64,000 bases of DNA from Candidatus Nealsonbacteria bacterium (GCA_047456305.1 CP179888.1:573307-637306), one strand, 5' to 3'; positions 5,985 to 56,690 are shown, numbered from the stretch's first letter. The notes: a model not told the origin generated them from the letters alone. Made by a program: numbers and translations.

Positions 5985-7679
5985 ATGAAAAGGGGAAGGA
6001 TAAATCTAATTTTAATTTTAATAATATTATTTGGAGTAGCTATTATAGGGAGGCTTTTTTTTATTCAGATACTCCATTGTGAATATTGGAAGGCTTTAGC
6101 TCAAGGTCAGCAAAAATTTTTTGCCCAAATTCAAGGAAATAGAGGAGAAATTTTTTTACAGAATAAAGAAGGAAATTTATACACCTTAGCCTTAAATAAA
6201 AATTGGGAATTGGTTTATATTTCTCCAGAAGAAATTACTACCAAAGGAGAGGATTCAATAGAAACAGCCAAAGCCCTGAGCCGCATATTGAATTTAGATG
6301 AAGACTTAATTTTAGAAAAAATTAAAAAATCAGGCAGTCTCTATGAATTAATAAAAAATAAATTAACTCAGGAAGAGATAGACCTCTTAAAAAAATTAAA
6401 TTTACCAGGAGTTTATTTAGGCTCAGAGACCTTAAGATATTATCCTCAAGAAACTCTGGCTTCTCATTTAGTTGGATTTTTAGGGGGAGATAACATTGGA
6501 CAATACGGGGTAGAAGGGTATTACAATGATATTCTTAAGGGATCAGAAGGATTTCAAGAGGGAGAAAAGGGTGCTCAAGGGTATTTAGTCAAAATGACCT
6601 CAGGCGTTGTTAAAGGAGGTACTGACCTTATTTTAACTTTTGATTACAATATCCAATTTATGGCTGAAAAGCTATTAAGAGAAGCTAAAGAAAATTTAGA
6701 TATTGAGGGGGGTCAAATTATAGTCGGAGACCCTAATTCAGGAAAAATTTTGGCTCTGGCTAATTTTCCGAATTTTAATCCCAATCAGTATTGGAAAGAA
6801 TCTAATTTAGAAATTTTCCAAAATGGGGCAAGCCAAAAGCTTTTTGAACCGGGTTCGGTGTTTAAACCCATTACCATGGCTGCAGCTTTAGACCAGGGAG
6901 TAATAACTCCTCAGACTACCTATATTGATCCGGGGATAATCGAAATCGGAGGTTGGTCTATTTATAATTATGACGAAAGAGTCTGGGGCGAAAGAACTAT
7001 GACTGAAGTTTTGGAAAAATCAATTAACACCGGGGCAGTCTTTGCCGGGAGGCAAATTGCTCACCAGACTTTCTTAGATTATATTGAAAAATTCGGGTTT
7101 TTTGAGCCAACCGGAATTGATTTACAAGGGGAGGTCTTTTCTACGAATTCAAATTTAAAAAAGGGCTATGAAGTAAATTTCGCCACAGCTTCTTTTGGAC
7201 AAGGGATTGAGATGACTCCGCTACAATTATTCAGAGCAATTTGTGCTATTGCTAATGGAGGAAAATTAATTAAACCTTATGTCTTAGAAAATCCTGGTCC
7301 TAATTTAGATGAAATAAAAGGAAAGCAGATAATTTCGCAAAAAACAGCCACTCAATTAACAGCGATGTTGGTTTCAGTGATAGAGAATGGTTTTGGGAAA
7401 TCGGCTAAGATTCCCGGATATTATATTGCTGGTAAAACCGGAACTGCCCAGATATCTTTTTCAGCTTTAGAAATTGATAAATCGGGTTATTCTGAAAAAA
7501 CTATTCAAACTTTTGCTGGATTTGTTCCGGCTTTTAATCCCCGGTTTTTGATTTTGATAAAATTAGATAATCCAAAGGCCAGGACAGCTGAATATTCGGC
7601 TACCCCAATATTTCGAGAACTTGCTAAATACATTATAGATTACTATCAGATTCCCCCTGATTATGATTATGAAGAATAA
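5985..7679 (+). CDS. ftsI: Class B penicillin-binding protein (FtsI/PBP2-type transpeptidase)
   Basis: N-terminal TM; SVFKP (SxxK), SIN (SxN), KTGTA (KTG); dcw context. Confidence 0.85.
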   Translation: MKRGRINLILILIILFGVAIIGRLFFIQILHCEYWKALAQGQQKFFAQIQGNRGEIFLQNKEGNLYTLALNKNWELVYISPEEITTKGEDSIETAKALSRILNLDEDLILEKIKKSGSLYELIKNKLTQEEIDLLKKLNLPGVYLGSETLRYYPQETLASHLVGFLGGDNIGQYGVEGYYNDILKGSEGFQEGEKGAQGYLVKMTSGVVKGGTDLILTFDYNIQFMAEKLLREAKENLDIEGGQIIVGDPNSGKILALANFPNFNPNQYWKESNLEIFQNGASQKLFEPGSVFKPITMAAALDQGVITPQTTYIDPGIIEIGGWSIYNYDERVWGERTMTEVLEKSINTGAVFAGRQIAHQTFLDYIEKFGFFEPTGIDLQGEVFSTNSNLKKGYEVNFATASFGQGIEMTPLQLFRAICAIANGGKLIKPYVLENPGPNLDEIKGKQIISQKTATQLTAMLVSVIENGFGKSAKIPGYYIAGKTGTAQISFSALEIDKSGYSEKTIQTFAGFVPAFNPRFLILIKLDNPKARTAEYSATPIFRELAKYIIDYYQIPPDYDYEE

Positions 7680-21629: not shown

Positions 21630-21633
21630 TTAT

Positions 21634-21704
21634 TCCGGGGTCGTCTAATGGTAGGACAGTTGGTTTTGGTCCAACCAATCTTGGTTCGAATCCAAGCCCC
21701 GGAG
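21634..21704 (+). tRNA. tRNA-Gln (anticodon TTG)
   Basis: Manual cloverleaf: acceptor TCCGGGG/CCCCGGA (U1-A72), anticodon stem GTTGG/CCAAC with loop TTTTGGT, T-arm CTTGG-TTCGAAT-CCAAG. Confidence 0.8.
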
Positions 21705-21877
21705 CCCACATTTTCATTGTTGTTTCTATTCTCTCTTTAATTGGCTCGGTCGCTCGCTACGGCTCGCTCCCTCGCCCTTATTTTATATTCAAAAATGGGT
21801 TTAAAAAAGTCAAAAAAAATTCTACTAAGCAAAACCTTTCGGTTTCGCTTTTTTATTTTCGCCAAAATTAGACAAAA

Positions 21878-21906
21878 TTGACAAAGAGAAAATAAAAATA
21901 TAAGAT
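21878..21906 (+). promoter_or_regulatory. Sigma70-type promoter of the helicase/nuclease operon
   Basis: TTGACA, 17 nt, TAAGAT. ATG of the HTH gene lies 10 nt downstream. Confidence 0.5.
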
Positions 21907-21916
21907 AAAGAATAAT

Positions 21917-22096
21917 ATGGACAAACTTTTAACTATTAAAGAAATAGCAAAAATTCTCCGTGTCAGTGAACGGTCAGTAAACCGCTATATTGAATCTGGG
22001 AAGCTCAAAGCTTCCAAAATCGGCCAATGGCGAATATCCCAAAAAGATTTAGAAGGGTTTTTGCAAAAAACTAAAAATATTAAAAAGAGAAAGTGA
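21917..22096 (+). CDS. Excisionase/MerR-type helix-turn-helix DNA-binding protein (59 aa, below ORF-track cutoff)
   Basis: Own translation: MDKLLTIKEIAKILRVSERSVNRYIESGKLKASKIGQWRISQKDLEGFL... matches the excisionase-family HTH pattern. Confidence 0.6.
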   Translation: MDKLLTIKEIAKILRVSERSVNRYIESGKLKASKIGQWRISQKDLEGFLQKTKNIKKRK

Positions 22097-22100
22097 GATC

Positions 22101-25100
22101 ATGGATCAAGTTTCATTATTAAATTTCATAAAGTATTGTTTTGGGTATATAAAATTGACTCGACAACGTTCCTTTATGCTCCAAAGTAAGCTCGCAATTA
22201 AATTGCCCGAGCATTTTTTTAATCTTGCAGAACTACTAGAAAGTGATATAGATGACAATACCGGCAAGCTGATAAATTTGGAAACTTTTTATTCTCTTGA
22301 CCCGAAAAGGATAACAAAAGAGACCCAAAAACAATATAACGAAGAGCAGTCTGTAGCAAAAAAGATAGAAGAAATTTATAACAAAGGTAGGAACGATCCT
22401 TATACTAAGCAGATTGTCTTTAGTTTCGGGTATTACGAAATTGAAATTCCTTTGGAAGAAGAAGAAATTGAATTAAGATCAGATTATTTGAGAGAGGAAG
22501 ATGAGAGTGAAAAGCCAGCGACGAAGATTGACCGTTATCCTTTATTTTCTCTTCCAATTAGTATCGAAAAAGTATTTGAAAAGGGAGCCGGTAAATATTT
22601 CATTAAGCCAATCGATACCGGGGTTCAAGTAAATATTGGTGTTCTCGCAGATATTTTAGGTGAAGATCTTTACTATAAACTGATAGAAGAATTTGGCAGA
22701 TACGAGGTGAAGGGCGATTTATCTTTGCCAATAACAAACTCGGTAATTTTTAACGAAATATGGGACAAGATCAGAGCTCAATTGAAATTAACGGATGTTA
22801 AATTTGGTGAAGACTCTTTTGTCTTTAATGAAATACGAGTAGGTATTAGTCCAAGGGCAAATTATTTTATAGCAGATGATTTACAAAAACTTTCTAAATA
22901 CGAAGAAGATGATTTTAAAAATACATCACTAATCAGTTGGATCGAGAATGAAGACCTTTCCTCAAAAGATGAGATACCAGAAGAAGGAGAACTATATTTT
23001 CCGTTCCTTTACGATGAATATCAATTAAGGGTTCTCTCAAATATCAATAATAATGCAAGCATTGTTCAGGGTCCTCCCGGAACAGGAAAATCCCAAACTA
23101 TCGCAAATCTTCTTTGTCATCTTGCCGCAAAAGGGAAAAAGATTCTCTTTGTGAGCCAGAAAGAGCAAGCTTTAAAAGTGGTAAAAGATATGTTGAAAAA
23201 ATTAGACACCCGGTATTTATTTGGATATATGCCAGATGTTGGCTCCATCCAATTAAATGAAGAAGATAGGTTAGATGGAATTGCTCCCCAGCTAGCTGCC
23301 TTAGAGTCTCACATAGATGAATTAGGTTATAAAATTTATCCGAGAAGAAAATATCCTCTTATTGTATATAAAGAGAAAAAAGGAGACACAATAACAACTC
23401 AAAGTATTAAAAATATTACCGAAAAGAAGACAGAATTAAAACAATTGTTTAGTCAATCAATCGAAGCACAAAGATTATTCTATAAGCTTTACCAAGAATT
23501 AGAGGATTTAAAGGAATATGATTTTGAGATTTCTAATTTGAGACGGTTTCAAAAAACATTTTCTGATGAGTTGCAGAAAAAAATTATAGAACTAAAGGAT
23601 GCTATAGAAAAGTTAGTTAAAGAAATTAAAAACTATGGAAGAAATAAAAAGAAGACCGGGTTTGATAAACTATTTTCTATTCTTGATCTAAAAAATAATC
23701 ACTACTCAGAGCTTATCCGAGAAATTGTTAACGATATCACTCAAGCTGGTTACGATGGGCATAATAAACTTTTGCGTAGTTTAAAAAATACTTTACAAAG
23801 GTGGCGCTTAAAGAATATTCGTTCTGCTTTACCCAGAGAATTACTTGATTATATCGATGAGCAAATTGGACAAGATATTTCAAGAACTCAAGCCATTAAG
23901 ACAATGGAAGAATTATTGAATTATTGTCGTTACCACGAACAACAAAAAGAGTTAAAAGAAATGGAAAAGGATTTAGAAGATTCGTTAAATAGTTGTGGGT
24001 CATCTAATAAAGAATTTCTTCGGATAGAAAAACTTATATCTAAGGCTAACTTCAATGAAGTTAAAGAAAAAATTCTCAGAACCTCGGAAATCCATAGACA
24101 ATTAGATGAGATTGAAACTAAAAACCCAAATGATATTAGTTTGTCTCTTGAGAAGACAGAAAAAACTCGACAGCAACGTATAGCAAAATATCTTCAAAAC
24201 ATTATTAATAAAAAAATCTTAGATAAATATAAAGAAGGAGCTTCGGTGAGAGCGATAATTAGAAAACTTGCCAAGGCCTTTGGTAAATCTAAAAAAGCAT
24301 ACAAGACTTTTGATCGGCTTAGAGATGACCCTAACAATTTTCTGGCTATTATGGATTTCATTCCAGTTTGGATAATGGAACTTGACGATGCGAGTCGGGT
24401 TATTCCTCTAGGGCCCGGAATTTTCGATTATGTTATTTTTGACGAATCTTCTCAATGCAATATCGCCTATGGAATTCCAGCAATGTACCGGGCTAAAAAA
24501 GCTCTTTTCGTAGGAGATAGTGAACAGATGCGAGATAATACGATTATCTTTAAATCAAATCGCTCTTTCGATGAATTGGCTAAAAAATATCAAATTTCTG
24601 AAGATCTTCAAATCAAGGCTACTGGAGAGGCAGTGCAGTCAATTTTAGACATAGCTCGATTAACAGGTTTTGAAGAAGTGCCGTTAAGGAATCATTATCG
24701 TTCACCGAGAGAATTAATTGGTTTTAGTAATAAATACTTCTATAAACCAAAAGGCAAAGAATTGATAATCCAAAATACTAACTATTTATCGTATAAAAAC
24801 ACTGATCAGATAATGGTCATTCATCCGATTGAAGTTGATTGGAATAAAGAAATTTCAGAAAGGATAAATGTCTCCGAGGCGGAAAAAATATTAAAGTTTT
24901 TCCGTGAACTAAAATCTGATAAACGCTACCAAGACAAATCTATTGGAATTCTTTCGTTTTTTAACGCTCAAGCAGCTTATCTCCGTGAGCTATTTGAAAA
25001 AGAAGGATATAAAGAAGAAGTTGATAATTACAAAATCGGGATTATTGAAGGAATTCAGGGCGATGAAAAAGATATTATTATCTATTCCTTTGTTATTCGG

Positions 25101-25676
25101 ACTCCAGATCAAAAAAATAAATATATTCCTCTTACAGGTGAAGGTGGAGACATTAGAGCCGGCATAAACAAAGGCAGAGTAAATGTTGCTTTCTCCCGAG
25201 CGCGATTACAAACTCACTGTTTTGTAAGTATGCCTATTGAAGAAATCCCGGACGGAATTTGGATTAAGAAATATCTTGAGTATGTAAAGGATAATTGCAA
25301 AATTGATTTTTTCTCAGTAGAGTTAAAACCTTTTGATTCTGAATTTGAAAAGAAGTTTTATAATTTTGTCTATTCAAACTTACCTAAAAAAGGGTATCGC
25401 ATCCAGAACCAAGTTAGGAGTTGCGGATTTAAAATTGACTTTGTTATCACTAATACTAAGACTGGAGAGAAGGTTGCCATTGAGTGTGATGGCCCAACTC
25501 ATTTTCAAAATGAAGCTGATGAAGAAATTGGAATCTATGCTGAAGATGATGAAGAAAGACGACAAATATTAGAAGCTGCCGGCTGGGAGTTTTGTAGAAT
25601 AAAATACTCTGATTGGATTGATGAAAAATTCGATCGTAAACTAATATTAAATGACATTATAAAGATACTCTCATAG
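22101..25676 (+). CDS. Upf1-like SF1B helicase fused to C-terminal DUF559/Vsr-fold endonuclease (DUF4011-type architecture)
   Basis: GPPGTGKSQT, FDESSQC, VGDSEQM, HYRSPRELI, IQGDEKDIIIYSFV, NVAFSRAR. C-terminus FKIDFVI...VAIECDGPTHF...AGWEFCRIKYSDW. Confidence 0.8.
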   Translation: MDQVSLLNFIKYCFGYIKLTRQRSFMLQSKLAIKLPEHFFNLAELLESDIDDNTGKLINLETFYSLDPKRITKETQKQYNEEQSVAKKIEEIYNKGRNDPYTKQIVFSFGYYEIEIPLEEEEIELRSDYLREEDESEKPATKIDRYPLFSLPISIEKVFEKGAGKYFIKPIDTGVQVNIGVLADILGEDLYYKLIEEFGRYEVKGDLSLPITNSVIFNEIWDKIRAQLKLTDVKFGEDSFVFNEIRVGISPRANYFIADDLQKLSKYEEDDFKNTSLISWIENEDLSSKDEIPEEGELYFPFLYDEYQLRVLSNINNNASIVQGPPGTGKSQTIANLLCHLAAKGKKILFVSQKEQALKVVKDMLKKLDTRYLFGYMPDVGSIQLNEEDRLDGIAPQLAALESHIDELGYKIYPRRKYPLIVYKEKKGDTITTQSIKNITEKKTELKQLFSQSIEAQRLFYKLYQELEDLKEYDFEISNLRRFQKTFSDELQKKIIELKDAIEKLVKEIKNYGRNKKKTGFDKLFSILDLKNNHYSELIREIVNDITQAGYDGHNKLLRSLKNTLQRWRLKNIRSALPRELLDYIDEQIGQDISRTQAIKTMEELLNYCRYHEQQKELKEMEKDLEDSLNSCGSSNKEFLRIEKLISKANFNEVKEKILRTSEIHRQLDEIETKNPNDISLSLEKTEKTRQQRIAKYLQNIINKKILDKYKEGASVRAIIRKLAKAFGKSKKAYKTFDRLRDDPNNFLAIMDFIPVWIMELDDASRVIPLGPGIFDYVIFDESSQCNIAYGIPAMYRAKKALFVGDSEQMRDNTIIFKSNRSFDELAKKYQISEDLQIKATGEAVQSILDIARLTGFEEVPLRNHYRSPRELIGFSNKYFYKPKGKELIIQNTNYLSYKNTDQIMVIHPIEVDWNKEISERINVSEAEKILKFFRELKSDKRYQDKSIGILSFFNAQAAYLRELFEKEGYKEEVDNYKIGIIEGIQGDEKDIIIYSFVIRTPDQKNKYIPLTGEGGDIRAGINKGRVNVAFSRARLQTHCFVSMPIEEIPDGIWIKKYLEYVKDNCKIDFFSVELKPFDSEFEKKFYNFVYSNLPKKGYRIQNQVRSCGFKIDFVITNTKTGEKVAIECDGPTHFQNEADEEIGIYAEDDEERRQILEAAGWEFCRIKYSDWIDEKFDRKLILNDIIKILS

Positions 25677-25700
25677 AAAATTAAATGAAAAATTAATTAT

Positions 25701-27188
25701 ATGAAAAAAATTACAGCTACTAATTTTTACGATTATACTAAATGCAAATATTGTGTATATTTAGAAAAAAACGGAGACCCAAAATTAAAAGATAAGATCT
25801 CCAATTTTGTGAAATTATTATGGTATAGAGGTATCCAGCATGAAGAGGCGGTTATTAAAGATTTTATTAAAAGCAAAAATAAATCTTTTGCAGAGGTTGC
25901 AAGAGATAAGCCAGCTGGTAAAGCAACTTTTATAGAAACAATTAACCTTATGAAAAGAGGAGTTGACTATATATATCAAGGAGTATTGATGGCTGATAAC
26001 TTTGTGGGCAGACCTGATTTACTTGAAAAAATAAAAGGTAATTCATCTTTTGGAGAGTACTGTTATATACCTGTTGATATTAAATCAGGAAGGGGTTATG
26101 AAGGAGAGGATTTTGATAATGGGAAAGTTAAAGAATCATATTGGCTCCAAATTAATTTCTACAGTCTTTTATTGGGCAAGATTCAAGGGTACCTTCCTAA
26201 ATTCGGTAAAATTATCAATATAGATTATCAAGAATTAGAATATAAGATCGATTTAGACAACAAAAATTTTATTAAGATTAAAGAAGATATATCATTGATG
26301 GCAAAAGGCCGTGAGTTATATCAGCCGACAATTAGTAGCAAGTGCGATTTATGTAGATGGAAAACTTATTGTAAAAAATGGGCAAACAAAAGAAAGGATT
26401 TATCTTTATTGTTTTATGTTGGTGAGATTAAATATGGATTACAGGATTGTGGAATTAATAAAATTGAGGAAATACTTAAATTGCCGTTAGAAGAATGGCT
26501 TAAAAAACTACCGGAAATAAAAAAAGAAGGACACTTTAAGGGTATTGCAGAAAAAACTTTTACCAACCTTTATAGAAGAGCGGAGGTTTACAAACAAGGC
26601 AAAGAAGTCTTTTATTCTCGGATAGAGTTTCCTGATTCAGATATAGAAATACATTTTGACATAGAAGATGACCCGACACAGGATATTACTTATTTATTTG
26701 GTTTCTGGATAAGAGAATTTTCAAAAAACAAAAGCTATTATAAATACTTCATGGCACAAGATATTAATGAAGAAGAAAAAACCGTAAAGGAGTTGTGGAG
26801 ATTTTTGCAAGAATGCTACGGAATACCAATATACCATTATTCTATGCATGAAATATCTACATTAAGAAGATTACAGCAAAAATATAAATTGACTCCAAGC
26901 CCCTTGGAACAACTTGAAGAGAAATCTATCGACTTATACAAAATAATACAAAAGTATTCTGATTGGCCTTTGACTAGTTATGGTTTGAAACCAATTTGCA
27001 AATTTATAGGTTTTCAGTGGTCTTCTGATGATGCTGGTGGAGCGAATTCAATTGAATGGTTCTCTAAATTTCTTTCTGGCGATAAGGAAATGAGAGAGAA
27101 GATATTAGAATATAATAAAGAAGACTGCGAAGCGACAGCCCACTTAAAAGATTATATACAAAAAAATGATAAATTTATCTCCAAGTAA
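25701..27188 (+). CDS. TM0106-type RecB/Cas4-like Fe-S nuclease fused to RNase-H-like (DEDD) exonuclease
   Basis: CKYC, GRPDLL, PVDIKSG, QINFYSLLL, CDLCRWKTYC; then IHFDIEDDP and YNKEDCEAT. Confidence 0.75.
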   Translation: MKKITATNFYDYTKCKYCVYLEKNGDPKLKDKISNFVKLLWYRGIQHEEAVIKDFIKSKNKSFAEVARDKPAGKATFIETINLMKRGVDYIYQGVLMADNFVGRPDLLEKIKGNSSFGEYCYIPVDIKSGRGYEGEDFDNGKVKESYWLQINFYSLLLGKIQGYLPKFGKIINIDYQELEYKIDLDNKNFIKIKEDISLMAKGRELYQPTISSKCDLCRWKTYCKKWANKRKDLSLLFYVGEIKYGLQDCGINKIEEILKLPLEEWLKKLPEIKKEGHFKGIAEKTFTNLYRRAEVYKQGKEVFYSRIEFPDSDIEIHFDIEDDPTQDITYLFGFWIREFSKNKSYYKYFMAQDINEEEKTVKELWRFLQECYGIPIYHYSMHEISTLRRLQQKYKLTPSPLEQLEEKSIDLYKIIQKYSDWPLTSYGLKPICKFIGFQWSSDDAGGANSIEWFSKFLSGDKEMREKILEYNKEDCEATAHLKDYIQKNDKFISK

Positions 27189-27903
27189 AATCAATATCTA
27201 CAAGCAGTGTCCGTTTAAATATAAATGCGAGATAGATACCGAATTAAGAAAAAAATATAAGAGAGAAACTCCTCCGCTTGTTTTCGGTAATTTGGTACAT
27301 ACTTGTTTAAATGACCTGTATAAGAGAACTCAAAAAGAAGATAGAAGTTTACAGAGACTCAGAGATTTGTTTGAACAAAAATTTAAAGCCAATCTGGCAA
27401 AACATATCAATATTTTTGGTTCGCAAGAGAATATAATAAGTTATGTAGAAAAGGCAAAGAAGATGTTTAAAAATTATACAGAAAGCGAATTTTTTGAACC
27501 GGAGCCAATGCTTACAGAAGAATTCCCTAAGTCTTTAATAAATGAAAATATTGAACTTAGAGGAAAGTTTGATAGGGTCGATCTTAATAAGAATAAATTG
27601 ACCTTAATAGATTATAAGACAGGAAAATTTAAAGAGGATGAAGCAGATAAATTTCAAGTAAGCCTTTACGAGCTTCTTTTATCAAGATACTTACCCGAAT
27701 ATACCGTAGAGGAAAAGATACTATATTATCTTGATGATAATAAAACAATCAGATTTCCATCTGAGAAAGATAGTCTTTCTGAAATAGAGAAAAAATTAAT
27801 GTCTATTGCTAATAAAATAGATAATGACAAAGAACTACTTCCGACACAAAATAATCTATGCAGATATTGCGATTATAAAGTTATATGTCCTGTTTTTAAA
27901 TAA
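27166..27903 (+). CDS. Cas4/AddB-type PD-(D/E)xK nuclease with Fe-S cysteines
   Basis: QCPFKYKC, GKFDRVD, LIDYKTGK, QVSLYELLL, CRYCDYKVIC. Overlaps the upstream gene by 23 nt. Confidence 0.75.
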   Translation: MINLSPSKINIYKQCPFKYKCEIDTELRKKYKRETPPLVFGNLVHTCLNDLYKRTQKEDRSLQRLRDLFEQKFKANLAKHINIFGSQENIISYVEKAKKMFKNYTESEFFEPEPMLTEEFPKSLINENIELRGKFDRVDLNKNKLTLIDYKTGKFKEDEADKFQVSLYELLLSRYLPEYTVEEKILYYLDDNKTIRFPSEKDSLSEIEKKLMSIANKIDNDKELLPTQNNLCRYCDYKVICPVFK

Positions 27904-27918
27904 AAGAATTACAATTTG

Positions 27919-29322
27919 ATGACCCAGCGAGAAGCATTAGATATATTGAAGCTTGGCCACAATGTTTTTTTGACTGGCCCTGCCGGAAGCGGTAAGACTT
28001 TTTTGTTAAACAAGTATATAGAGTATTTAAAAGACAAAAAAGTTAAAGTTGGAATTACTGCTTCTACAGGAATTGCGGCTACCCATATTAACGGAAGAAC
28101 AATTCATTCTTGGTCCGGTTTTGGTATTAAAGACAAGTTGATAGAAAAAGAAATGAGAAAATTGTTAAATAGCAGGCATCTTAATTTAAGAATTTCAGCA
28201 ACAAAAGTTCTTATTATAGACGAGATTTCAATGCTTCATGCTCATCAATTAGATTTGGTAAATAGAATCTGCAAAAAAATTAGAAATAACTATTTGCCAT
28301 TTGGGGGATTACAGGTTGTATTGTGTGGAGATTTTTTCCAACTGTCTCCTGTAGAAAGAAGCGGTAAAAAACCTCACTTTGTTAATGAATCCAAGGCTTG
28401 GCTTGAAATGGGTATTAAGGTTTGTTATTTGGATAAATGTCAGCATAGGCACAAAGATGAGAATTTCATTAAGCTTTTAAACGAAATAAGAAAAAATAAT
28501 GTCAGTGTTTCAAGTAAAAAATTATTACTTGAAAGGTTATATAAATCAGTAAATACCCCTATTAAACCTGTGAAGCTTCATACTCATAATGCTAATGTAG
28601 ATGCTATTAATAGTTTTGAGTTAAAAAAGATAAAAACTAAAGAAAGGGTTTATGAAATGACTTCTGATGGTCCTAAGAATTTAGTCGATTCTTTGAAAAA
28701 ATGGTGTTTAGCTCCAGAAGGACTAACTGTGAAAAAAGGAGCTGCTGTAATATTTGTTAAGAATAATTTTGATAGAGGATATATAAATGGAACCCTTGGA
28801 AAGATTGTAGGATTTAATAAAGAAGATGGTTATCCGGTAGTAAAAGTTGTTTCTGGTAAAAGAATTCCAGCATATCCTGAATCATGGAAAATAGAGGAAG
28901 ATGATGAAGTTAAAGCCCAGATTAGTCAAATTCCACTCCGTTTGGCTTGGGCTATTACAGTTCATAAAAGTCAAGGTATGACTTTAGATATAGCGGAAAT
29001 GGATTTAAGTAAGTCATTTGATTATGGTATGGGTTATGTAGCTCTTTCTAGGGTAAGGTCTTTTAATGGAATAAAGTTAATAGGGGTAAATCGTTTAGCC
29101 CTTCAGGTTAGCAAGGAAGTCATAGAATTAGACAAATACCTGCAAAAAATGTCAGAGAAAGTAGAAAAGAGTTTAGGAGATATAAGTGTCAAAGAAATTA
29201 GGAAAAGGCAAAAGAGCTTTGTAGAATTGAATACAGATGAAGATGAGAGCGAAGAAGACGAAGCAATACCAACAGTAGATATTGCTGAAGATGAAATACC
29301 AATAGTAGATATTCCTTTTTAA
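27919..29322 (+). CDS. Pif1/RecD-type SF1B helicase with acidic C-terminal tail
   Basis: GPAGSGKTF, IIDEISML, LCGDFFQLSPV, ITVHKSQGMT, YVALSRVRS. Confidence 0.8.
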   Translation: MTQREALDILKLGHNVFLTGPAGSGKTFLLNKYIEYLKDKKVKVGITASTGIAATHINGRTIHSWSGFGIKDKLIEKEMRKLLNSRHLNLRISATKVLIIDEISMLHAHQLDLVNRICKKIRNNYLPFGGLQVVLCGDFFQLSPVERSGKKPHFVNESKAWLEMGIKVCYLDKCQHRHKDENFIKLLNEIRKNNVSVSSKKLLLERLYKSVNTPIKPVKLHTHNANVDAINSFELKKIKTKERVYEMTSDGPKNLVDSLKKWCLAPEGLTVKKGAAVIFVKNNFDRGYINGTLGKIVGFNKEDGYPVVKVVSGKRIPAYPESWKIEEDDEVKAQISQIPLRLAWAITVHKSQGMTLDIAEMDLSKSFDYGMGYVALSRVRSFNGIKLIGVNRLALQVSKEVIELDKYLQKMSEKVEKSLGDISVKEIRKRQKSFVELNTDEDESEEDEAIPTVDIAEDEIPIVDIPF

Positions 29323-29457
29323 TTTTTATTTGACTGGTGATTATCGGCAGTGCTTTTTTGCGATGGTAGGGTAGAGGAGAAGAAAAAGAAATAAATTTAT
29401 GAAGGCAAAAATATAATAATCATTTTGGCGTTGATAGTTATTATTTTATAATTACTT

Positions 29458-30225
29458 ATGAAAATATATTCTGATTTTGAACTTAGAACAGAAATAAAAA
29501 AACTCAAAAAAGAAAAAAAATACACAGAGGCTAAGAAGTTACTATTATCAAGAATAGATGAGAAATTTTTTAAAAAATCCGGTGCTTATAAGGATTATTG
29601 TTCGCAAACATTTACTACTTACTTTATCGAAGAACTTATAAAATTGTTAATTCAACTAGGCGAAAAAGAAAAGGCTCTCCATGTCTTTAAGAAAGGGCTA
29701 AAATTACCACATTTAAAAAGAGAAAATGAAATTGCCTTTTCTCTATCAATACAAAGTATCTATCCTCAAATAGCAAAACAGTATATTCCAAGATATAAAA
29801 TAAAAACAATCGAAAGAAGGGTAGTTTTCAAGAAAGGCAAACAAAAATTTTTAGAAAAAAATAGAAAGGAATTATTTGTTGAAGAGATAGCTTTGGAATA
29901 TTACCGTTATAATGGTAATTGGCGCGGTGTATGGCTCACTCCCACAACAGAAGTTTTATATTTTAAACGCTTAAGACAAACAATTGGTTTAAGTAATTAC
30001 AAAAAATTAACAAGCAATGCAATGGATAGCATGGGGCATATTTGCAATTTGTGCTATGGAGCACCAGATTTAATTTTGTATAAAGGGTTTATCAAGAAGA
30101 TTGGGAAGTCTGTTGAAGTAAAAGGCTTAAAAGACAAACTCTCTACAGCACAGTTAGTATGGATTGAACAATTTAATAAACTACATTTAGATTTTGAGGT
30201 GTTACAAGTTAAAGAAAAAAAATAA
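29458..30225 (+). CDS. FAN1-like nuclease (helical/TPR-like N-domain + VRR-NUC)
   Basis: VEEIALEYYRYNGNWRGVW and GAPDLILYK...SVEVKGLKDKLSTAQLVWIEQF (PD...ExK VRR-NUC pattern). Confidence 0.6.
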   Translation: MKIYSDFELRTEIKKLKKEKKYTEAKKLLLSRIDEKFFKKSGAYKDYCSQTFTTYFIEELIKLLIQLGEKEKALHVFKKGLKLPHLKRENEIAFSLSIQSIYPQIAKQYIPRYKIKTIERRVVFKKGKQKFLEKNRKELFVEEIALEYYRYNGNWRGVWLTPTTEVLYFKRLRQTIGLSNYKKLTSNAMDSMGHICNLCYGAPDLILYKGFIKKIGKSVEVKGLKDKLSTAQLVWIEQFNKLHLDFEVLQVKEKK

Positions 30226-30436
30226 TATTTTTGTGAGAGGTTAACTCTAACTCGAAAAAATTAAAGAAATTAGAATTTGGAGAGTGAATAAAATTTTTAA
30301 ATAAAAATGTGAATTTTTTAGTAGAAAATCTTTTAAAAGTTAGGGCAACTGACCATCGAAAAATTCAAGAGGAAATTAGAAGAATTATTAAAAGAAGCCA
30401 AACAAAAAGTCGAGGAATTAATTGAGAAATAAAATT

Positions 30437-30730
30437 ATGGATTATATAAAAACGTATATATTTAAAGATAAAGATGGTAAATTTTGGCCAAAAGTAAAAT
30501 TTAATACTGAGAAAGGAGATTGGCAACCTAAGGCGGAACAAATTAAAGATATTGTTAGGGTATATTCTTATTGTCTAGAAAAATCTCGTTATTCTGAAGC
30601 TTTTGGTGGTGCAGAAAAATTTGCAGAACAAATCAACCTCGCCATTTTATACAATAAAGATGGTTCCCCTAGGTCGTATGAATACGGAGATGAAATATAT
30701 GATATAGAAGAGGAAGTAAAAGAACATTGA
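30437..30730 (+). CDS. Hypothetical protein
   Basis: ORF track; ATG 30437 preferred. No recognisable motifs. Confidence 0.4.
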   Translation: MDYIKTYIFKDKDGKFWPKVKFNTEKGDWQPKAEQIKDIVRVYSYCLEKSRYSEAFGGAEKFAEQINLAILYNKDGSPRSYEYGDEIYDIEEEVKEH

Positions 30731-30751
30731 GAGAAAAATAAAAGATCAATC

Positions 30752-30770
30752 AAAATTTAGCCCGAAATTA
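30752..30770 (+). repeat. Junction repeat family 1 (AAAATTTAGGCYGAARTTGAG), short copy
   Basis: AAAATTTAGCCCGAAATTA immediately before ATG 30773. Confidence 0.6.
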
Positions 30771-30772
30771 AT

Positions 30773-31477
30773 ATGAAACAATGGGATAAAATATTTAAAA
30801 AATATGGTAAAGTTTTTACAAAAATCGAAAGGGATTTGCCAAAAATTGTAAAAATATTTAAAAAACATAATGTTAAAAAAGTCCTTGATTTAGGTTCAGG
30901 CACGGGACGACATGTAATTTATTTAGCTAAAAATGGATTTGAAGTATATGGAATTGATATTTCCGAGGAAGGAATAAAAATTACCAAAAATTGGTTAAGA
31001 GAGAACGAATTAAAGGCGGGCCTTAAAGTTGGCTCCATCTACAAAAAGTTGCAATACAAAGATAACTTTTTTGATGCGGTTATATCTACAAGCACGATTC
31101 ATCATGCCAGAATTAAAACCATCAGAAAAGCAATCAAAGAAATAGAAAGGATATTAAAGCCAGGCGGATTAATTTTTATAACTGTCCGTAAAAGAAAGCT
31201 TAAGAAGTTCTGGCCAAAATCTACAATAATTGAGAAATACGGAAAACAAAAATCAAGCTATAAAGTAATTGGACCAAGGACTTATATACCGATAGAAGGA
31301 GGCGAAAAAGGATTAATACATTATCTTTTTAATAAAGAATTGATAAAAAAAGAATTTAAGAACTTTAAAATTAATAATATTTGGATTGATTCTAAAAGAA
31401 GGCATTATTGTTTCTTAGGGGAATTAAAAAACTTACCAAAATTTAGGCCGAAGTTGAGGGAAATCAATAAAATATGA
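30773..31477 (+). CDS. Class I SAM-dependent methyltransferase
   Basis: [11 protein letters not shown] motif I, GIDIS acidic loop, [10 protein letters not shown]. Confidence 0.75.
31438..31465 (+). repeat. Junction repeat family 1, copy inside 3' end of methyltransferase ORF
   Basis: AAAATTTAGGCCGAAGTTGAGGGAAATC, 9 nt before ATG 31474. Confidence 0.7.
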
Positions 31478-32016
31478 AATATCCTGATTTGAAGATAAAA
31501 TTTCAAAATAAAACATTAACTTTTCAATTTTTGGGGCAATTTGAGATCGAGCGAGACGAAAAAGGAACCCCAATTACTTATGAGAGGAAAAATCAAGAAG
31601 AAACGAGTTATTTATTAAGTGTTCGGACAGAACTAACAAAAAGTGGTAAACCTGAGGTAATTACAATTCTTCCAAATCATTTACGTACAAAATTAAAACG
31701 AAAATATTACGATACAAAAAATCTTGGTGATATCTGGCGATTACCCGGAATTTATGCATTTATATTGACAAAAGATAATAACGTAAAATACAAATATATA
31801 GGTCGAGCAAGTATCAGAATTGCAAACCGTTTACGACAATACCTTGCACCGAGCTCTAAAAGAATGACGACTTTTTATGTAAATCGATTGTTGTTTAAAA
31901 CACTTAAAGAGGGAGACACAGTGCTAATCTATTTTTATCCCGAGCCTGACACAGAAAAGGAATTGCAAATTCTTCTTCGTCCAGATTGGAACCGTGAGAT
32001 TCCTAGAAATAATTAA
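31474..32016 (+). CDS. GIY-YIG-like nuclease-domain protein (tentative)
   Basis: [22 protein letters not shown]...ANRLRQY resembles GIY-(x13)-YIG plus a conserved Arg. ATGA overlap with the upstream gene. Confidence 0.4.
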
Positions 32017-32042
32017 AATTTAGGCCAAAGTTGAGAGAAATT
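32015..32042 (+). repeat. Junction repeat family 1, intergenic copy
   Basis: AAAATTTAGGCCAAAGTTGAGAGAAATT, 10 nt before ATG 32053. Confidence 0.7.
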
Positions 32043-32052
32043 CAAAAAGAAT

Positions 32053-32628
32053 ATGAATGATATTGAAATCGAGATTCAAGTTAATATTGAAGATAATAAG
32101 CCGCTAATAGATTTTTTAGAAAAGAGCGGTCAGTTTATGTCAGAGAACCATCAGATAGACGAGTATTTTTCTCCGGTTCACCGAAATTTTATTGGAGTTC
32201 GTCCAGTTAAAGAATGGTTAAGGTTACGAAACTCAGACGGGAAATTCTCTATAAATTATAAAAACTGGTATTTTGATGAAAAAGGAAAAAGCCACCATTG
32301 TGATGAATACGAAACTAAAATAGAAGATTTAACCCAAATTAAAAAGATATTAGATGTCCTTAATTTTAAATCTATTATTAAGGTTGATAAACTAAGAAAA
32401 ACCTGGATATACAAAGATTATGAAATTGATGTAGATTCAGTAAAAGGGCTGAGAGATTTTGTGGAGATTGAATACATCGGAAAAGAAGAAAAAATAGACC
32501 CAAAAAAGATTACAGAAGAAATGATGAGCTTTCTTAAAAGTCTTGGGTGCGGAAAAATAAAAAGGAATTATGTAGGTTATCCGTTTCAATTACTATTTCC
32601 AGATGAAGTAAAATATGAAGAGCAATAA
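32053..32628 (+). CDS. CYTH-domain protein (CyaB-like class IV adenylyl cyclase / triphosphatase fold)
   Basis: N-terminal IEIEIQ (ExExK-like), WLRLR, DEYETKI, LRKTW, DFVEIEY in CyaB-like order. Confidence 0.7.
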   Translation: MNDIEIEIQVNIEDNKPLIDFLEKSGQFMSENHQIDEYFSPVHRNFIGVRPVKEWLRLRNSDGKFSINYKNWYFDEKGKSHHCDEYETKIEDLTQIKKILDVLNFKSIIKVDKLRKTWIYKDYEIDVDSVKGLRDFVEIEYIGKEEKIDPKKITEEMMSFLKSLGCGKIKRNYVGYPFQLLFPDEVKYEEQ

Positions 32629-32629
32629 A

Positions 32630-32658
32630 TCGCCAAGATGGCGGTTTTTTGATAGAAT
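32630..32658 (+). promoter_or_regulatory. Junction element family 2: hairpin + T-run + TGnTAGAAT (-10) cassette
   Basis: TCGCCAAGATGGCGGTTTTTTGATAGAAT; ATG 32666 lies 7 nt after the -10. Confidence 0.6.
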
Positions 32659-32665
32659 AAATAAA

Positions 32666-32956
32666 ATGAAATATAGTAAAAAACCAATTGATAATAATTT
32701 AGAGAAATATTACAAAAAATGGATTTCAGCAATTGCTAATGACGAAACCGGCCGAACAATCAAACGGCATATCATTAGACATGCCAAAGAAATTTATTCA
32801 AAAGAATCAAAAGTATGGTCGGCGAGCATGAGAAATTTGATAGAAGTTTTTGATGAGGTCTATAAATCGACTCCGTCAATAAAATTAAAAATAAAAAGAC
32901 TCCAACATAAGTACAAACTGAATCCAAAAAGATATACCCCTCCACCGTCCAAGTAA
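32666..32956 (+). CDS. Hypothetical basic protein
   Basis: ORF-track frame trimmed to the ATG that follows the junction element (MKYSKKPID...). Confidence 0.4.
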   Translation: MKYSKKPIDNNLEKYYKKWISAIANDETGRTIKRHIIRHAKEIYSKESKVWSASMRNLIEVFDEVYKSTPSIKLKIKRLQHKYKLNPKRYTPPPSK

Positions 32957-32973
32957 GGTTTAAATTTTCGTAA

Positions 32974-33002
32974 TCGCCAAGATAGCGGTTTTTTGGTAGA
33001 AT
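32974..33002 (+). promoter_or_regulatory. Junction element family 2
   Basis: TCGCCAAGATAGCGGTTTTTTGGTAGAAT; ATG 33010 lies 7 nt after the -10. Confidence 0.6.
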
Positions 33003-33009
33003 AGAAAAT

Positions 33010-33552
33010 ATGAAGAAAGAGGAATATTTAGATATAGTTGACGAAAATGACAAGGTAATTGATAGAGATACTAGAAAAAATATATATAGAAAAAGAATAG
33101 ATTCCCAAGTTAGAGTTGTAAATGTTTTTATTTTAAACTCGGAAGGAAAATTACTCCTACCTAAAAGGTCGATGAATAGACAGATTTTTCCTGGATGCTA
33201 TGATTTTTCTTGTGGAGAACATGTTTTATCTGGAGAAAAGTATTATGAAACAGCCTTGAGAGGCGTGAGAGAAGAATTGGGCCTTGAAGGAGTAGAATTA
33301 ATTGAGTTAGGGAAACTTACTCCTCGGGATGGTGTTAGTTGTTTTATGAAAATCTATAAAGTGATCTATGATGCAGAAATAAATAATTATGACACGGATG
33401 GAATTGATAGATTGTTTTGGTATAGCTTGGATAAAGTGAGAAAAATGATCATGGAGGACAAGAAAAAATTTAAGGATGATTTTTCAATTGTACTAGAAAA
33501 ATTTGCTAATCAACTTGAAAACATAAGTAGCAAAAAACAGAATTTAGGCTGA
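33010..33552 (+). CDS. Nudix hydrolase (IDI/YfcD-like)
   Basis: Nudix box GEHVLSGEKYYETALRGVREELGL, with RG in place of the canonical RE. Confidence 0.8.
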   Translation: MKKEEYLDIVDENDKVIDRDTRKNIYRKRIDSQVRVVNVFILNSEGKLLLPKRSMNRQIFPGCYDFSCGEHVLSGEKYYETALRGVREELGLEGVELIELGKLTPRDGVSCFMKIYKVIYDAEINNYDTDGIDRLFWYSLDKVRKMIMEDKKKFKDDFSIVLEKFANQLENISSKKQNLG

Positions 33553-33559
33553 AATTGAG
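33541..33559 (+). repeat. Junction repeat family 1, copy at 3' end of Nudix ORF
   Basis: AATTTAGGCTGAAATTGAG. Confidence 0.6.
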
Positions 33560-33582
33560 CCCTTCGCCAAGCTCAGGGTAAA
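33560..33582. repeat. 23-nt GC-rich motif CCCTTCGCCAAGCTCAGGGTAAA
   Basis: One mismatch to 54426-54448 inside murC. Confidence 0.7.
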
Positions 33583-33609
33583 GGAAAATTTAATAACTAT
33601 ATAAAGATT

Positions 33610-34173
33610 ATGGCATTAAAAGTAGGTATAATTGGACCCGCTAATATTCCGAAAATAAGTAAAATTGTTGGGAAACCAGCAGGTTTTTTTCTTGAGAGGG
33701 GTGATAAGATTGGAGAAATTTTAGTCGAAACTGGTTGTGAATTGTGGGTAAATAGTGATAAAGGTATGCTGGCTAAAATTGCCAGAGCTTATAAGAAAAA
33801 TAATGGTAAAAAATTAGTTATTCTATACCCTGGTAAAGGCGAGCCATGGCCTAAAGATCATGCCGAATTATACAGAAAATACGGAGATGAAATTAGAAAA
33901 GAACCTAACTGGTTTTGGTCAAATTATAATGTAGTTTCATTACCAGATGTTTGTATTTGTGTAGGATTAAGCGCTGGTGGTTTGAGTGAGTTGGCATATA
34001 TTAAATGGAATTATTCATTGAAATGTGGGAATTTAAAAAAATTAATTGCAATAAAAGAATTGTTAAGAGGTGGTAAGTTGCCACCAGAAATTGAATTTGA
34101 TATCCAAAAAATATTAATATACATCAATAAAACTGAGGAATTAAAGGAACTTTTAGAAAAACTTTCTAAATAA
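33610..34173 (+). CDS. LOG/SLOG-like Rossmann-fold protein (TIGR00725-like, tentative)
   Basis: VGIIGPAN N-terminal strand, GCELWVNSDKGMLAKIARAY, CVGLSAGGLSELAY resembling the LOG GGxGTxxE region. Confidence 0.45.
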   Translation: MALKVGIIGPANIPKISKIVGKPAGFFLERGDKIGEILVETGCELWVNSDKGMLAKIARAYKKNNGKKLVILYPGKGEPWPKDHAELYRKYGDEIRKEPNWFWSNYNVVSLPDVCICVGLSAGGLSELAYIKWNYSLKCGNLKKLIAIKELLRGGKLPPEIEFDIQKILIYINKTEELKELLEKLSK

Positions 34174-35163: not shown

Positions 35164-35297
35164 TAAAACTCACAAAATCGATAGCTCAAAATACTTTTTA
35201 GACAACTGCCAGTAGGTTCTAATAGTGTTCAATCCTTGCAGTTAATGAATTTCAAAAAAAGTTGCCGAGAAGAAATTTTTTTGGTAAGATAGAATAT

Positions 35298-40532: not shown

Positions 40533-40606
40533 AGTATCCTGCCAGACAGGTTCTAACATCCCTCCTTCGCCGAAGCTACGGAGGGCGCAGCCGAAGTTTA
40601 AGAATT

Positions 40607-42161: not shown

Positions 42162-42191
42162 GACACCCCTTAAGGTCCCCAAATTTGTTCC

Positions 42192-42237
42192 TAAAATCCA
42201 GGTTCGAGACCAGGGATGCCAGCACCAGTCAGCGCAG
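42192..42237 (+). repeat. Direct repeat with tRNA T-arm-like core (left copy)
   Basis: TAAAATCCAGGTTCGAGACCAGGGATGCCAGCACC...AGCGCAG, about 85-90% identical to 42796-42841. Confidence 0.75.
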
Positions 42238-42711: not shown

Positions 42712-42795
42712 TTAAAATTTTATCTCATTTTAGCTTAAAAATGCCCCGACCGAGGCGGGTCGATGGAATACTGCCAAAAGCCCCGAAATCCCTCT

Positions 42796-42841
42796 TAAAA
42801 TCCAGGTTCGAGACCGGGGATGCCAGCAACCCTGAGCGCAG
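42796..42841 (+). repeat. Direct repeat with tRNA T-arm-like core (right copy)
   Basis: TAAAATCCAGGTTCGAGACCGGGGATGCCAGCAACC...AGCGCAG. Confidence 0.75.
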
Positions 42842-56644: not shown

Positions 56645-56690
56645 GGACTTTATCCTCATCTTCACCTTCGCTTCCTTCGGAAGCTCGGTA
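56641..56690 (+). repeat. Palindromic element (TTCGCTTCCTTCGGAAGCTCGG subfamily) between aspS and the carboxypeptidase gene
   Basis: ATGAGGAC-ttt-ATCCTCAT hairpin overlaps the aspS stop. Matches the reverse complement of 5396-5440. Confidence 0.75.

Follow-up and report, generated by a model that had tools for sequence, protein, structure and literature searches.

What is a short sequence doing that recurs, always in the same orientation, at four consecutive boundaries between unrelated genes? The question is raised by a 64,000-nucleotide (nt) stretch of a Candidatus Nealsonbacteria bacterium (GCA_047456305.1, CP179888.1:573307-637306), hereafter the window, and by an element of ~37 nt within it that we name M1. 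The window is a chromosomal stretch of ~33% G+C with housekeeping genes (a P-type ATPase, CysRS, XseA and two tRNAs) and also a run of DNA-handling genes. Here we report that M1 is a lineage-specific portable junction element, which delimits cassettes in hypervariable accessory-gene arrays. An initial annotation of the window had described a 19-28-nt motif; that motif is real, but it is only part of the ~37-nt element, which is anchored to the upstream stop codon.

The pattern AAAATTTAGGCYGAARTTGAG matched the + strand of the window at 30752-30772 (three mismatches), 31438-31458 (none), 32015-32035 (one) and 33539-33559 (one). Shuffled sequences gave an expectation of 0.04 matches at up to three mismatches, and four were reached in none of 100 shuffles. 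All four copies first annotated were thus recovered on the + strand, although the fourth starts at 33539 and not at 33541. The distance from the motif end to the next ATG is 0, 15, 17 and 50 nt for copies 1-4 (starts at 30773, 31474, 32053 and 33610); the copies do lie close upstream of a start codon, with a range of 0-50 nt where 2-50 nt had been given. Pattern, looser-core and profile searches found no fifth copy on either strand in the remaining ~61 kb of the window. The copies, scored with a family profile, are as follows.

30744..30772, + strand: M1 copy 1, degenerate GATCAATCAA-AATTTAGCCCGAAATTAAT; 13.6 bits, the weakest copy
31430..31466, + strand: M1 copy 2, the best copy; 40.3 bits, next ATG at 31474
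32007..32043, + strand: M1 copy 3, head AAATAATTAA, core G10->A; 36.0 bits
33531..33559, + strand: M1 copy 4, head and core, with C9->T and G13->A; 25.3 bits
33560..33581, + strand: hairpin insert of 22 nt, cccttcgccaagctcagggtaa, which splits copy 4 between TTGAG and the GGAAA tail
33582..33609, + strand: M1 copy 4, tail AGGAAAATTTAAT..., which reaches the ATG at 33610; homology (97%) to comparison locus L003 restarts here

Species-representative genomes (one per species) were scanned with AATTTAGGCYRAARTTGAG, which returned 25 stretches. Thirteen of these have low G+C content and share conserved sequence beyond the pattern, the other stretches being isolated chance matches. The 13 loci are mostly labelled as metagenome-assembled genomes (MAGs) of Patescibacteria (Nealsonbacteria, Parcubacteria, Minisyncoccales and 'Saccharibacteria'), and three carry another phylum label or none. 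Metagenome contigs yielded at least 120 stretches with the motif, and viral contigs a single match, without conserved flanks, which is due to chance. When 876 kb of DNA was searched with a profile built from the first copies, 201 matches scored at least 20 bits, and 171 of them are non-redundant copies in low-G+C loci; genes in the comparison loci (numbered with the prefix L) were called by a simple longest-ORF (open reading frame) caller. As the copies were gathered by an exact-match pattern, conservation at positions 0 to +18 is inflated and breakpoint statistics are biased. By these scans M1 is widespread in one bacterial lineage, the Nealsonbacteria-type Patescibacteria, and a literature search found no published description of its sequence or of a comparable element in Patescibacteria. 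Because the element occurs in contigs from many independent projects (Joint Genome Institute, ENA and NCBI MAGs), the assembly scar that had been offered as one explanation is excluded.

With position 0 set at the first A of AATTTAGG, the consensus comprises a head AAATAATCAA (-10 to -1), a core AATTTAGGCCGAAGTTGAG (0 to +18) and a tail GGAAATTT (+19 to +26). Head and tail lie outside the search pattern, so that their conservation is an independent result. Eighty-seven secondary copies do not match the pattern and are thus less biased; they keep the block CAAAATTTAGGCCGAAGTT at 73-97% per position, and the 3' GAG is their variable part (+16 is G in 56%, +18 is G in 41%). The element carries one stop codon per reading frame: TAA, TAG and TGA. 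The TAA at -7 is present in 52-68% of the copies that stop elsewhere and is thus retained where it is unused, which indicates that the head belongs to the element.

Both neighbouring genes lie on the motif strand for 121 copies; taken singly, the upstream gene shares that strand 147 times and is opposite 4 times, the downstream gene 132 and 8 times, respectively. Nine of the 171 non-redundant copies overlap a called ORF, namely seven short antisense ORFs of 51-130 amino acids (aa), which are probably spurious, and two ORFs in Deltaproteobacteria-labelled contigs, where the matches are due to chance. Real genes contain no genuine M1 copy, though 87% of the sequence is coding. This boundary bias agrees with the placement first proposed: the motif is not scattered at random, and, with flanking genes from hundreds of unrelated families, it is not the 5' untranslated region of a paralogous family. 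The fixed anchor of M1 is the upstream stop codon and not the next start; the element begins at this stop or a few bases from it. The upstream ORF terminates within M1 in 99 of 152 cases, at TAA(-7) 43 times, at TAG(+4) 15 times and at TGA(+15) six times, that is, in three different frames, whereas the next start codon is found from +19 to beyond +250, the commonest ATG position being +25 to +30.

Arrays of up to 6-7 copies per contig (L117, L033, L141) run through small, co-directional, unrelated ORFs. Most of these encode nucleases or have roles in nucleotide handling or defence, with genes for NYN, SNase, Mrr-like, PD-(D/E)XK, MazG, Nudix, HD, Macro, CYTH, nitroreductase and HicA/HicB proteins and for a LexA-methylase fusion. 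Members of the commonest cassette family, NYN (23 in 20 of 113 loci), are followed by 14 different partners and preceded by 19. Near-identical contig pairs aside, none of 125 testable non-redundant M1 junctions has both flanking genes in common with another, and no diverged contig pair was found that shares both M1-flanking genes as a stable junction would. What follows the CYTH gene varies among orthologues of 72-75% identity: M1 in L007, L052 and L077, a terminator-promoter module in the window, and a sigma70 promoter in L087, with another downstream gene in every case. In the window itself the separated genes are likewise unrelated, as had been noted: an S-adenosylmethionine (SAM) methyltransferase, a weak GIY-YIG-like ORF, CYTH, Nudix and uncharacterised ORFs.

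Copy 4 marks one end of a large difference between the window and its close relative L003:

21708..33581, + strand: variable island, from tRNA-Gln to M1 copy 4; 11.9 kb, G+C fraction 0.30-0.33

On both sides of the island L003 is 95-98% identical to the window, and it holds 1.9 kb of other genes in its place; window-L003 homology restarts exactly at the copy 4 tail. The hairpin at 33560-33581 is not present at the same site in L003. Across contig pairs of at least 95% identity, internal alignment ends fell on M1 21 times, on other junctions 37 times and inside genes 10 times. M1 therefore takes 21 of 58 junction breakpoints against 182 of 902 junctions, a roughly two-fold excess that is only suggestive, every locus having been fetched for holding M1. 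The comparison of cassette order in related genomes, proposed at the outset as a check, accordingly shows order breaking at M1 junctions. The element is linked to the upstream gene in 63 of 177 contexts and to the downstream gene in 50 of 173, which does not discriminate between the two. A G/C variant at +7 is clustered by locus (p = 0.0125), which fits an exchange between neighbouring copies. Clean empty/filled pairs with M1 on both sides were looked for and not obtained: in the only candidate, L094 against L088, M1 is degenerate and split by a hairpin at one end and missing at the other.

We tentatively read M1 as a portable linker between cistrons, placed after the stop codon, and its sequence, being shared among junctions, may serve as a short-homology crossover point for cassette shuffling; it would then be an analogue of phage PeSLs and integron attC arrays that has neither promoter nor hairpin. 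The element would be transcribed as part of polycistronic mRNAs and would act as a standard post-stop spacer that ends translation in whichever frame arrives, and its open purine-containing stretch (GAGG) could let ribosomes reach the next start codon by re-initiation. Being repeated within and across genomes, M1 would offer ~25-37 bp of identity at many junctions, where homologous or short-homology recombination could insert, delete or swap whole genes cleanly, for instance after DNA uptake; fusions via M1 would be tolerated because the element itself supplies stop codons. Recombination between repeated cassettes has been demonstrated for PeSLs (promoter-early stem-loops of T4-type phages; Arbiol et al. 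2010, PMC2839356; Comeau et al. 2014, PMC4122927). The relevant part of the window is the following.

29458..34173, + strand: cassette run of VRR-NUC, small ORF (30437-30730), SAM methyltransferase, GIY-YIG-like, CYTH, small ORF, Nudix and 187-aa ORF

Copies 1-3 lie between a promoter-like site (29425-29452) and the first terminator-like site (32631-32643). Since no terminator or promoter separates these copies, they would be transcribed as intercistronic RNA within one predicted operon.

How far the linker could also serve the downstream gene can be judged from what follows the element. A start codon occurs within ~30 nt after M1 in 67 copies, a hairpin with a T-run directly after M1 in at least 19, and a promoter (TTGACW-N17-TAnnnT or TGnTAnnAT) between M1 and the next gene in at least 13; in the remaining copies there are other inserts. 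M1 contains GAGG, and the spacing from GAGG to ATG is workable at the commonest ATG position; the ATG lies 15-17 nt beyond GAG(G) in copies 2 and 3, and over the family the spacing reaches values above 200 nt. M1 can thus only doubtfully be called a Shine-Dalgarno ribosome-binding site, and the initial annotation was right in not recognising a plain ribosome-binding site, or a known attC or REP element, in it.

The same junctions bear on a promoter reading, in which every cassette would bring its own transcription start and a conserved 5' leader, either from the -10-like AATAAT at -9 to -4, from a sigma28-like GCCGA or from a promoter of the single-subunit RNA polymerase type. M1 is asymmetric, orientation-locked, about promoter-sized and conserved upstream of many genes, its head AATAAT agrees with TATAAT at five of six positions, ATTTAGG matches what we take to be the start of the SP6 promoter, and GGGAAA resembles what are presumably T7-type initiation sequences. 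There is also the precedent of halovirus HF2, whose intergenic repeats reportedly proved to be promoters (PMC8707807). We nevertheless regard a promoter as very unlikely. Neither a -35 box nor TGn is conserved, while the visible promoters here are of the form TTGACW-N17-TAnnnT or TGnTAGAAT; the reading is contradicted by the terminators directly behind M1 and by the separate sigma70-type promoters, in at least 19 and at least 13 copies, respectively; and the bases corresponding to -4 to -1 in a T7-type promoter are the least conserved. The window is without a single-subunit polymerase gene, the element is absent from viral contigs, the single match being chance, and a simple promoter scan of the region gave 27 sites against 22.9 expected, with no regional excess. 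Particular forms were rejected individually: sigma28-like (TAAA-N15-GCCGATAA), for an unconserved TAAA (-11: A 63%, T 15%, in unbiased copies) and a spacing one base short; sigma54 (GG-N10-GC), for a spacing off by 2 nt by inspection; and phage origin or a phage-type promoter, for the missing flanks of the sole viral match and the missing polymerase gene in the window.

Several observations weigh against the linker reading as well. The Shine-Dalgarno-like GAG(G) is the least conserved part of M1 in unbiased copies (the 56% and 41% given above), and this variability, together with the position of the ATG, 15-17 nt past it in copies 2 and 3 and anywhere between +19 and more than +250 in the family, means that a ribosome-binding role cannot explain the conservation. 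About half of the copies are cut off from the next gene by a terminator, promoter or hairpin, so a role in downstream expression is dispensable. The ~20 nearly invariant bases exceed the needs of a spacer and suggest recognition by a protein or an RNA. As to recombination, a length of 37 bp marks the lower limit for RecA-type exchange, junctions of other types have as many breaks in absolute terms, and the two-fold enrichment of breakpoints at M1 is inflated by the way in which the loci were fetched.

The excess conservation leads to an alternative that we consider possible, though unlikely: M1 would be an RNA or DNA recognition site for a lineage-specific trans-acting factor, and shuffling a by-product. 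Such a factor might be an RNA-binding regulator, an endoribonuclease cutting array transcripts into single-gene mRNAs, or an architectural protein of the HU/IHF type. About 20 contiguous bases conserved at 73-97% in copies outside the pattern are more than stop codons or a ribosome-binding site need, and the element is orientation-locked to transcription. It is also asymmetric and non-palindromic; the consensus and the four window copies fold no better than shuffles (z = +0.36 to +0.61), and the minimum free energy of the element alone is 0 to -3.8 kcal/mol. M1 is thus predicted to be single-stranded and would be accessible in RNA. A structured RNA or Rfam family was rejected, there being neither a folding excess nor a covariance-model match: no Rfam model matched over M1 even at E <= 10, and only two tRNAs pass the gathering threshold in the window. 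Genes for NYN-domain ribonucleases are the commonest family beside M1, and in copies with a terminator (GAG-GGAAATCGCC..GGCGGTTTTTT) the element would lie at the 3' end of the upstream mRNA. The head AATCAAAATTTAG resembles WATCAANNNNTTR, which we take to be the IHF consensus, and AAAAUUU fits what is presumably the RNase E preference, RN↓WUU.

No partner family has emerged for such a factor, however, none occurring in more than 2 of the 121 large-protein clusters near M1. These bacteria commonly carry NYN genes in any case, and such genes are M1-adjacent in only ~40% of their contexts. An antisense small RNA partner was rejected, since no reverse-strand copy of M1 exists in the window or the loci. 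Small hairpins, moreover, split the element at three recurrent positions (-1/0, +9/+10 and +18/+19) and do so with the junction kept, which is hard to square with a strict binding site. These hairpins form a G+C-rich, CCCTCCTTCGCCGAAGCTACGGAGGG-like family of 21-58 nt that seems to bring a short GCC/CAAG duplication with it, and their loops carry GCCGAAG, as does the M1 core. They were seen in the window (33560-33581, ~40565-40600 and ~56650-56690) and in L052, L059, L081, L094, L128 and L135; upstream of xseA (40607), only the right half of M1 is present, after such a hairpin.

The linker reading relies on general recombination at M1; a dedicated system would act there by other means. M1 could be the site of an undiscovered site-specific cassette system, analogous to attC/VCR or pdif, with its recombinase encoded elsewhere in the genome, which we hold to be rather improbable. 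It would account for small, mostly promoter-less, co-directional and unrelated ORFs (including HicAB toxin-antitoxin genes) with M1 at each 3' end, for extremely promiscuous neighbours, for the coincidence of the island boundary against L003 with M1 and for the preferential insertion of small hairpins into M1 at fixed positions. The core, AATTTAGG followed by CCGAAGTT, has 6/8 dyad symmetry around GGCC, and the 3' end GTTGAGG/GTTGAAA resembles GTTRRRY, which we take to be the attC core site. Among 121 representative proteins of 230-520 aa, taken from loci reaching ~5 kb either side of M1, a Pfam scan found, on the other hand, no recurrent recombinase, integrase or Y1 transposase, so that a cognate recombinase, for which the initial annotation had proposed a search, is not recurrent within ~5 kb of M1 loci. 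M1 is without a hairpin or bulged stem and has 37 nt against the 57-141 nt of attC, breaks occur at other junction types too, directly oriented copies together with an active recombinase would delete the arrays, and copies decay gradually, from 46 to 13 bits, like a motif under ordinary selection. Of the recombination site suggested at first, the breaking of gene order at the junctions therefore stands, and a recombinase, symmetry and folding do not; nor are the breaks peculiar to M1 junctions.

Within the window, the copies differ in how the upstream ORF meets them. Copy 1 is directly followed by the methyltransferase ATG (30773), and the upstream ORF stops 26 nt before its position 0. In copy 2, TTA (31433-31435) replaces the usual TAA at -7, which is why the methyltransferase ORF reads through; it crosses the copy, with TAG 31444-31446 and TGA 31455-31457 internal to it, and ends at TGA 31475. 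The read-through tail adds 14 residues to the methyltransferase that have no counterpart in ~120 homologues, most of which end in ...GELK(x). The GIY-YIG-like ORF stops at TAA 32014-32016 in the copy 3 head, before the CYTH ATG at 32053, and the Nudix ORF stops at TGA 33550-33552 inside the copy 4 core, a codon created by the C->T variant. That two copies are read as C-terminal codons of the preceding ORF, the methyltransferase and the Nudix one, is as originally described. One frame of copies 2 and 3 reads KFRPKLREI in both, with synonymous differences only. A duplicated coding 3' end was rejected as the source of this likeness, since methyltransferase homologues stop before the motif and stops occur in all frames across the motif family.

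The GIY-YIG-like ORF lies between copies 2 and 3, and the window copies might be the local footprint of this gene, which as a free-standing homing endonuclease would have entered its target site and duplicated it. The shared KFRPKLREI, and an 83% identical homologue in L149/L150 that is flanked by M1-like copies in a different gene context, agree with this. The GIY-YIG match is sub-threshold, though (20.7 against the Pfam cut-off of 22.6 bits), only 12 homologues were found and none in 146 M1 loci, and the distant ones are without clear M1 flanks, L147 having a 15.9-bit resemblance downstream and L151 nothing. The similarity of copies 2 and 3 stays within the family consensus, and more than 170 other copies flank unrelated genes. 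A homing footprint is hence largely refuted by the sub-threshold domain, the homologues without clear M1 flanks and the copies elsewhere, and we give it next to no credence. Distant GIY-YIG-like homologues were observed beside a large serine recombinase, or a tyrosine integrase with MobC/NikA-like genes (L147 1589-3229; L151 6038-7075 and 7507-7851), neighbours which suggest that the GIY-YIG-like ORF travels on integrative elements in other Patescibacteria.

Set beside known systems, M1 shares its cassette-bounding role with PeSL and attC/VCR but fails the defining tests of both. Like PeSLs, it is a short conserved intergenic motif repeated between small, non-essential, unrelated ORFs in hyperplastic regions; indels and replacements between relatives are bounded by it (L003, the CYTH orthologues and the breakpoint counts), and the proposed mechanism is recombination between copies. 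A PeSL, however, is a strong sigma70-like promoter with a terminator stem-loop, found in phages (PMC2839356, PMC4122927), whereas M1 has no promoter (only the 5/6 -10-like AATAAT, which doubles as a stop) and no stem-loop, the terminator hairpins after it being separate modules only. It also sits inside operons, is stop-anchored and occurs on bacterial chromosomes and not in viral contigs. The junction type that really resembles PeSL is the window's family 2, a hairpin with TGnTAGAAT, described below.

With attC/VCR arrays M1 has in common orientation-locked repeats of lineage-specific sequence at each ORF 3' end in co-directional arrays, and cassettes that are small, mostly promoter-less and unrelated and include toxin-antitoxin genes. 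An attC site, in contrast, is an imperfect palindrome of 57-141 nt (R''-L''...L'-R') that acts as a folded single strand with an adjacent IntI; M1 has ~37 nt, is unfolded and has no integrase nearby, and its GTTGAGG/GTTGAAA fits GTTRRR but ends in a purine, with no RYYYAAC in the consensus. REP/BIME, ERIC, Correia, RUP and BOX elements are also short repeats of co-transcribed intergenic regions, often just after stops, and can affect mRNA stability or bind IHF and mediate rearrangements. Each of them is a palindrome or ends in inverted repeats, and they are spread over the whole genome in either orientation, whereas M1 is asymmetric, one-directional and confined to one island in the window, and no RAYT/Y1 transposase recurs nearby. 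The pdif sites of Acinetobacter plasmids (XerC/D sites) bound discrete modules by a short conserved site in many contexts, as M1 does, but have 11-6-11 inverted arms and occur in alternating orientation, while M1 lacks arms of this kind and keeps a single orientation. Promoters of the T7/SP6 phage type and the halovirus HF2 repeats (PMC8707807) resemble M1 as near-invariant, asymmetric, transcription-oriented sequences of ~20-30 nt before many genes. M1 differs in being often followed by a terminator or a separate sigma70-type promoter, with no polymerase in the window and no copy in viral contigs.

Short of these systems, M1 could still be the recombination or recognition site of an unrecognised gene-cassette platform of Patescibacteria, an integron equivalent with a short unstructured site and an undiscovered factor in place of attC/IntI, through which genomes would exchange arrays of promoter-less accessory and defence cassettes; we think this doubtful. 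Patescibacteria (the candidate phyla radiation) live on other cells with tiny genomes and presumably depend on DNA uptake, and to our knowledge integrons have not been described as a feature of them. Little is understood of how accessory and defence genes are gained and reshuffled in this group, and a searchable 37-nt seam that delimits cassettes gives a handle to catalogue their mobile gene pool from metagenomes. Indels bounded by M1, circular cassettes and a partner that binds the element are predictions open to testing, and M1 is a candidate standard linker for gene expression in the few cultivable, transformable members. If a dedicated factor recognises it, M1 would represent a new cassette-exchange system; if none does, the phage principle of the 'mobile regulatory cassette' would extend to cellular chromosomes, with an element that has neither promoter nor terminator.

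Two other kinds of junction element accompany M1 in the window.

30395..30436, + strand: M1b junction element AAGCCAAACAAAAAGTCGAGGAATTAATTGAGAAATAAAATT, directly before ATG 30437; exact core in 16 of 146 loci
32625..32673, + strand: family 2 module, with hairpin CGCCAAGATGGCG, T-run, TGATAGAAT and ATG 32666; closes the operon of copies 1-3
32969..33017, + strand: second family 2 module, in front of the Nudix gene

M1b has its 3' part, TTGAGaAAT...ATG, in common with M1, and one frame of it reads ...AKELLEEAKQKVEELIEK*, usually without a long ORF upstream. Its placement indicates ATG 30437 as the true start of the ORF listed as 30422-30730. Family 2 would combine a terminator with a leaderless-mRNA promoter, the architecture of phage PeSLs. 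It also occurs at 35257, 36023, 36714 and 43456, as a hairpin CGCCAAGAnGGCG, a T-run, TGnTAGAAT, 7-8 nt and an ATG. For the ORF that follows CYTH, ATG 32666 is the probable start, in place of 32615.

The island (window 21633-33581 compared with L003 3480-5450) lies immediately 3' of tRNA-Gln. It encodes an excisionase-type helix-turn-helix protein, a 1191-aa helicase-nuclease, RNaseH-like/PD-(D/E)XK, Cas4-like, Pif1 and VRR-NUC proteins, and the M1 cassettes. No integrase was found in the 11.9 kb, nor an attR-type repeat of the tRNA-Gln 3' end at the far edge. The 92 nt after tRNA-Gln (21708-21799) are 85-89% conserved in L040, L045 and L051.

Further observations concern the cassette loci. 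In L011 (~7620-7660) and L012 (minus strand, ~480-560 and ~870-1010) the M1 head borders directly on canonical TTGACA-N16-17-TGnTATAAT promoters of the opposite strand; their transcripts would be ~50-110 nt long and end in terminator hairpins, at least one is predicted to be structured, and they could represent small RNA genes between cassettes. A ~46-codon ORF or leader (MENLLKFNLNKLQ.EGLDRG...) lies between M1 and NYN genes in L094 (181-321), L141 (4852-4992), L021 (~5530) and L061 (~5065). The second commonest protein family of the M1-bearing contigs is a fusion of a LexA DNA-binding/peptidase part with an N6/N4 DNA methyltransferase (~490 aa; L076, L078 and 12 other loci), which is never directly adjacent to M1. 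DnaA-box-like TGTGGATAAC(T/C)TT sequences recur between genes, near junction elements, just upstream of M1 in L019, L073 and L077 and at ~4095 in the window. Other repeats of the window are 126-nt tandem coding repeats at 2703-3196 in the ORF 2192-3838, a 61-nt two-copy repeat (42177-42237 and 42781-42841) that contains a tRNA T-arm-like GGTTCGAGACC, and a 58-nt two-copy repeat (291-348 and 4688-4745) with 86% identity.

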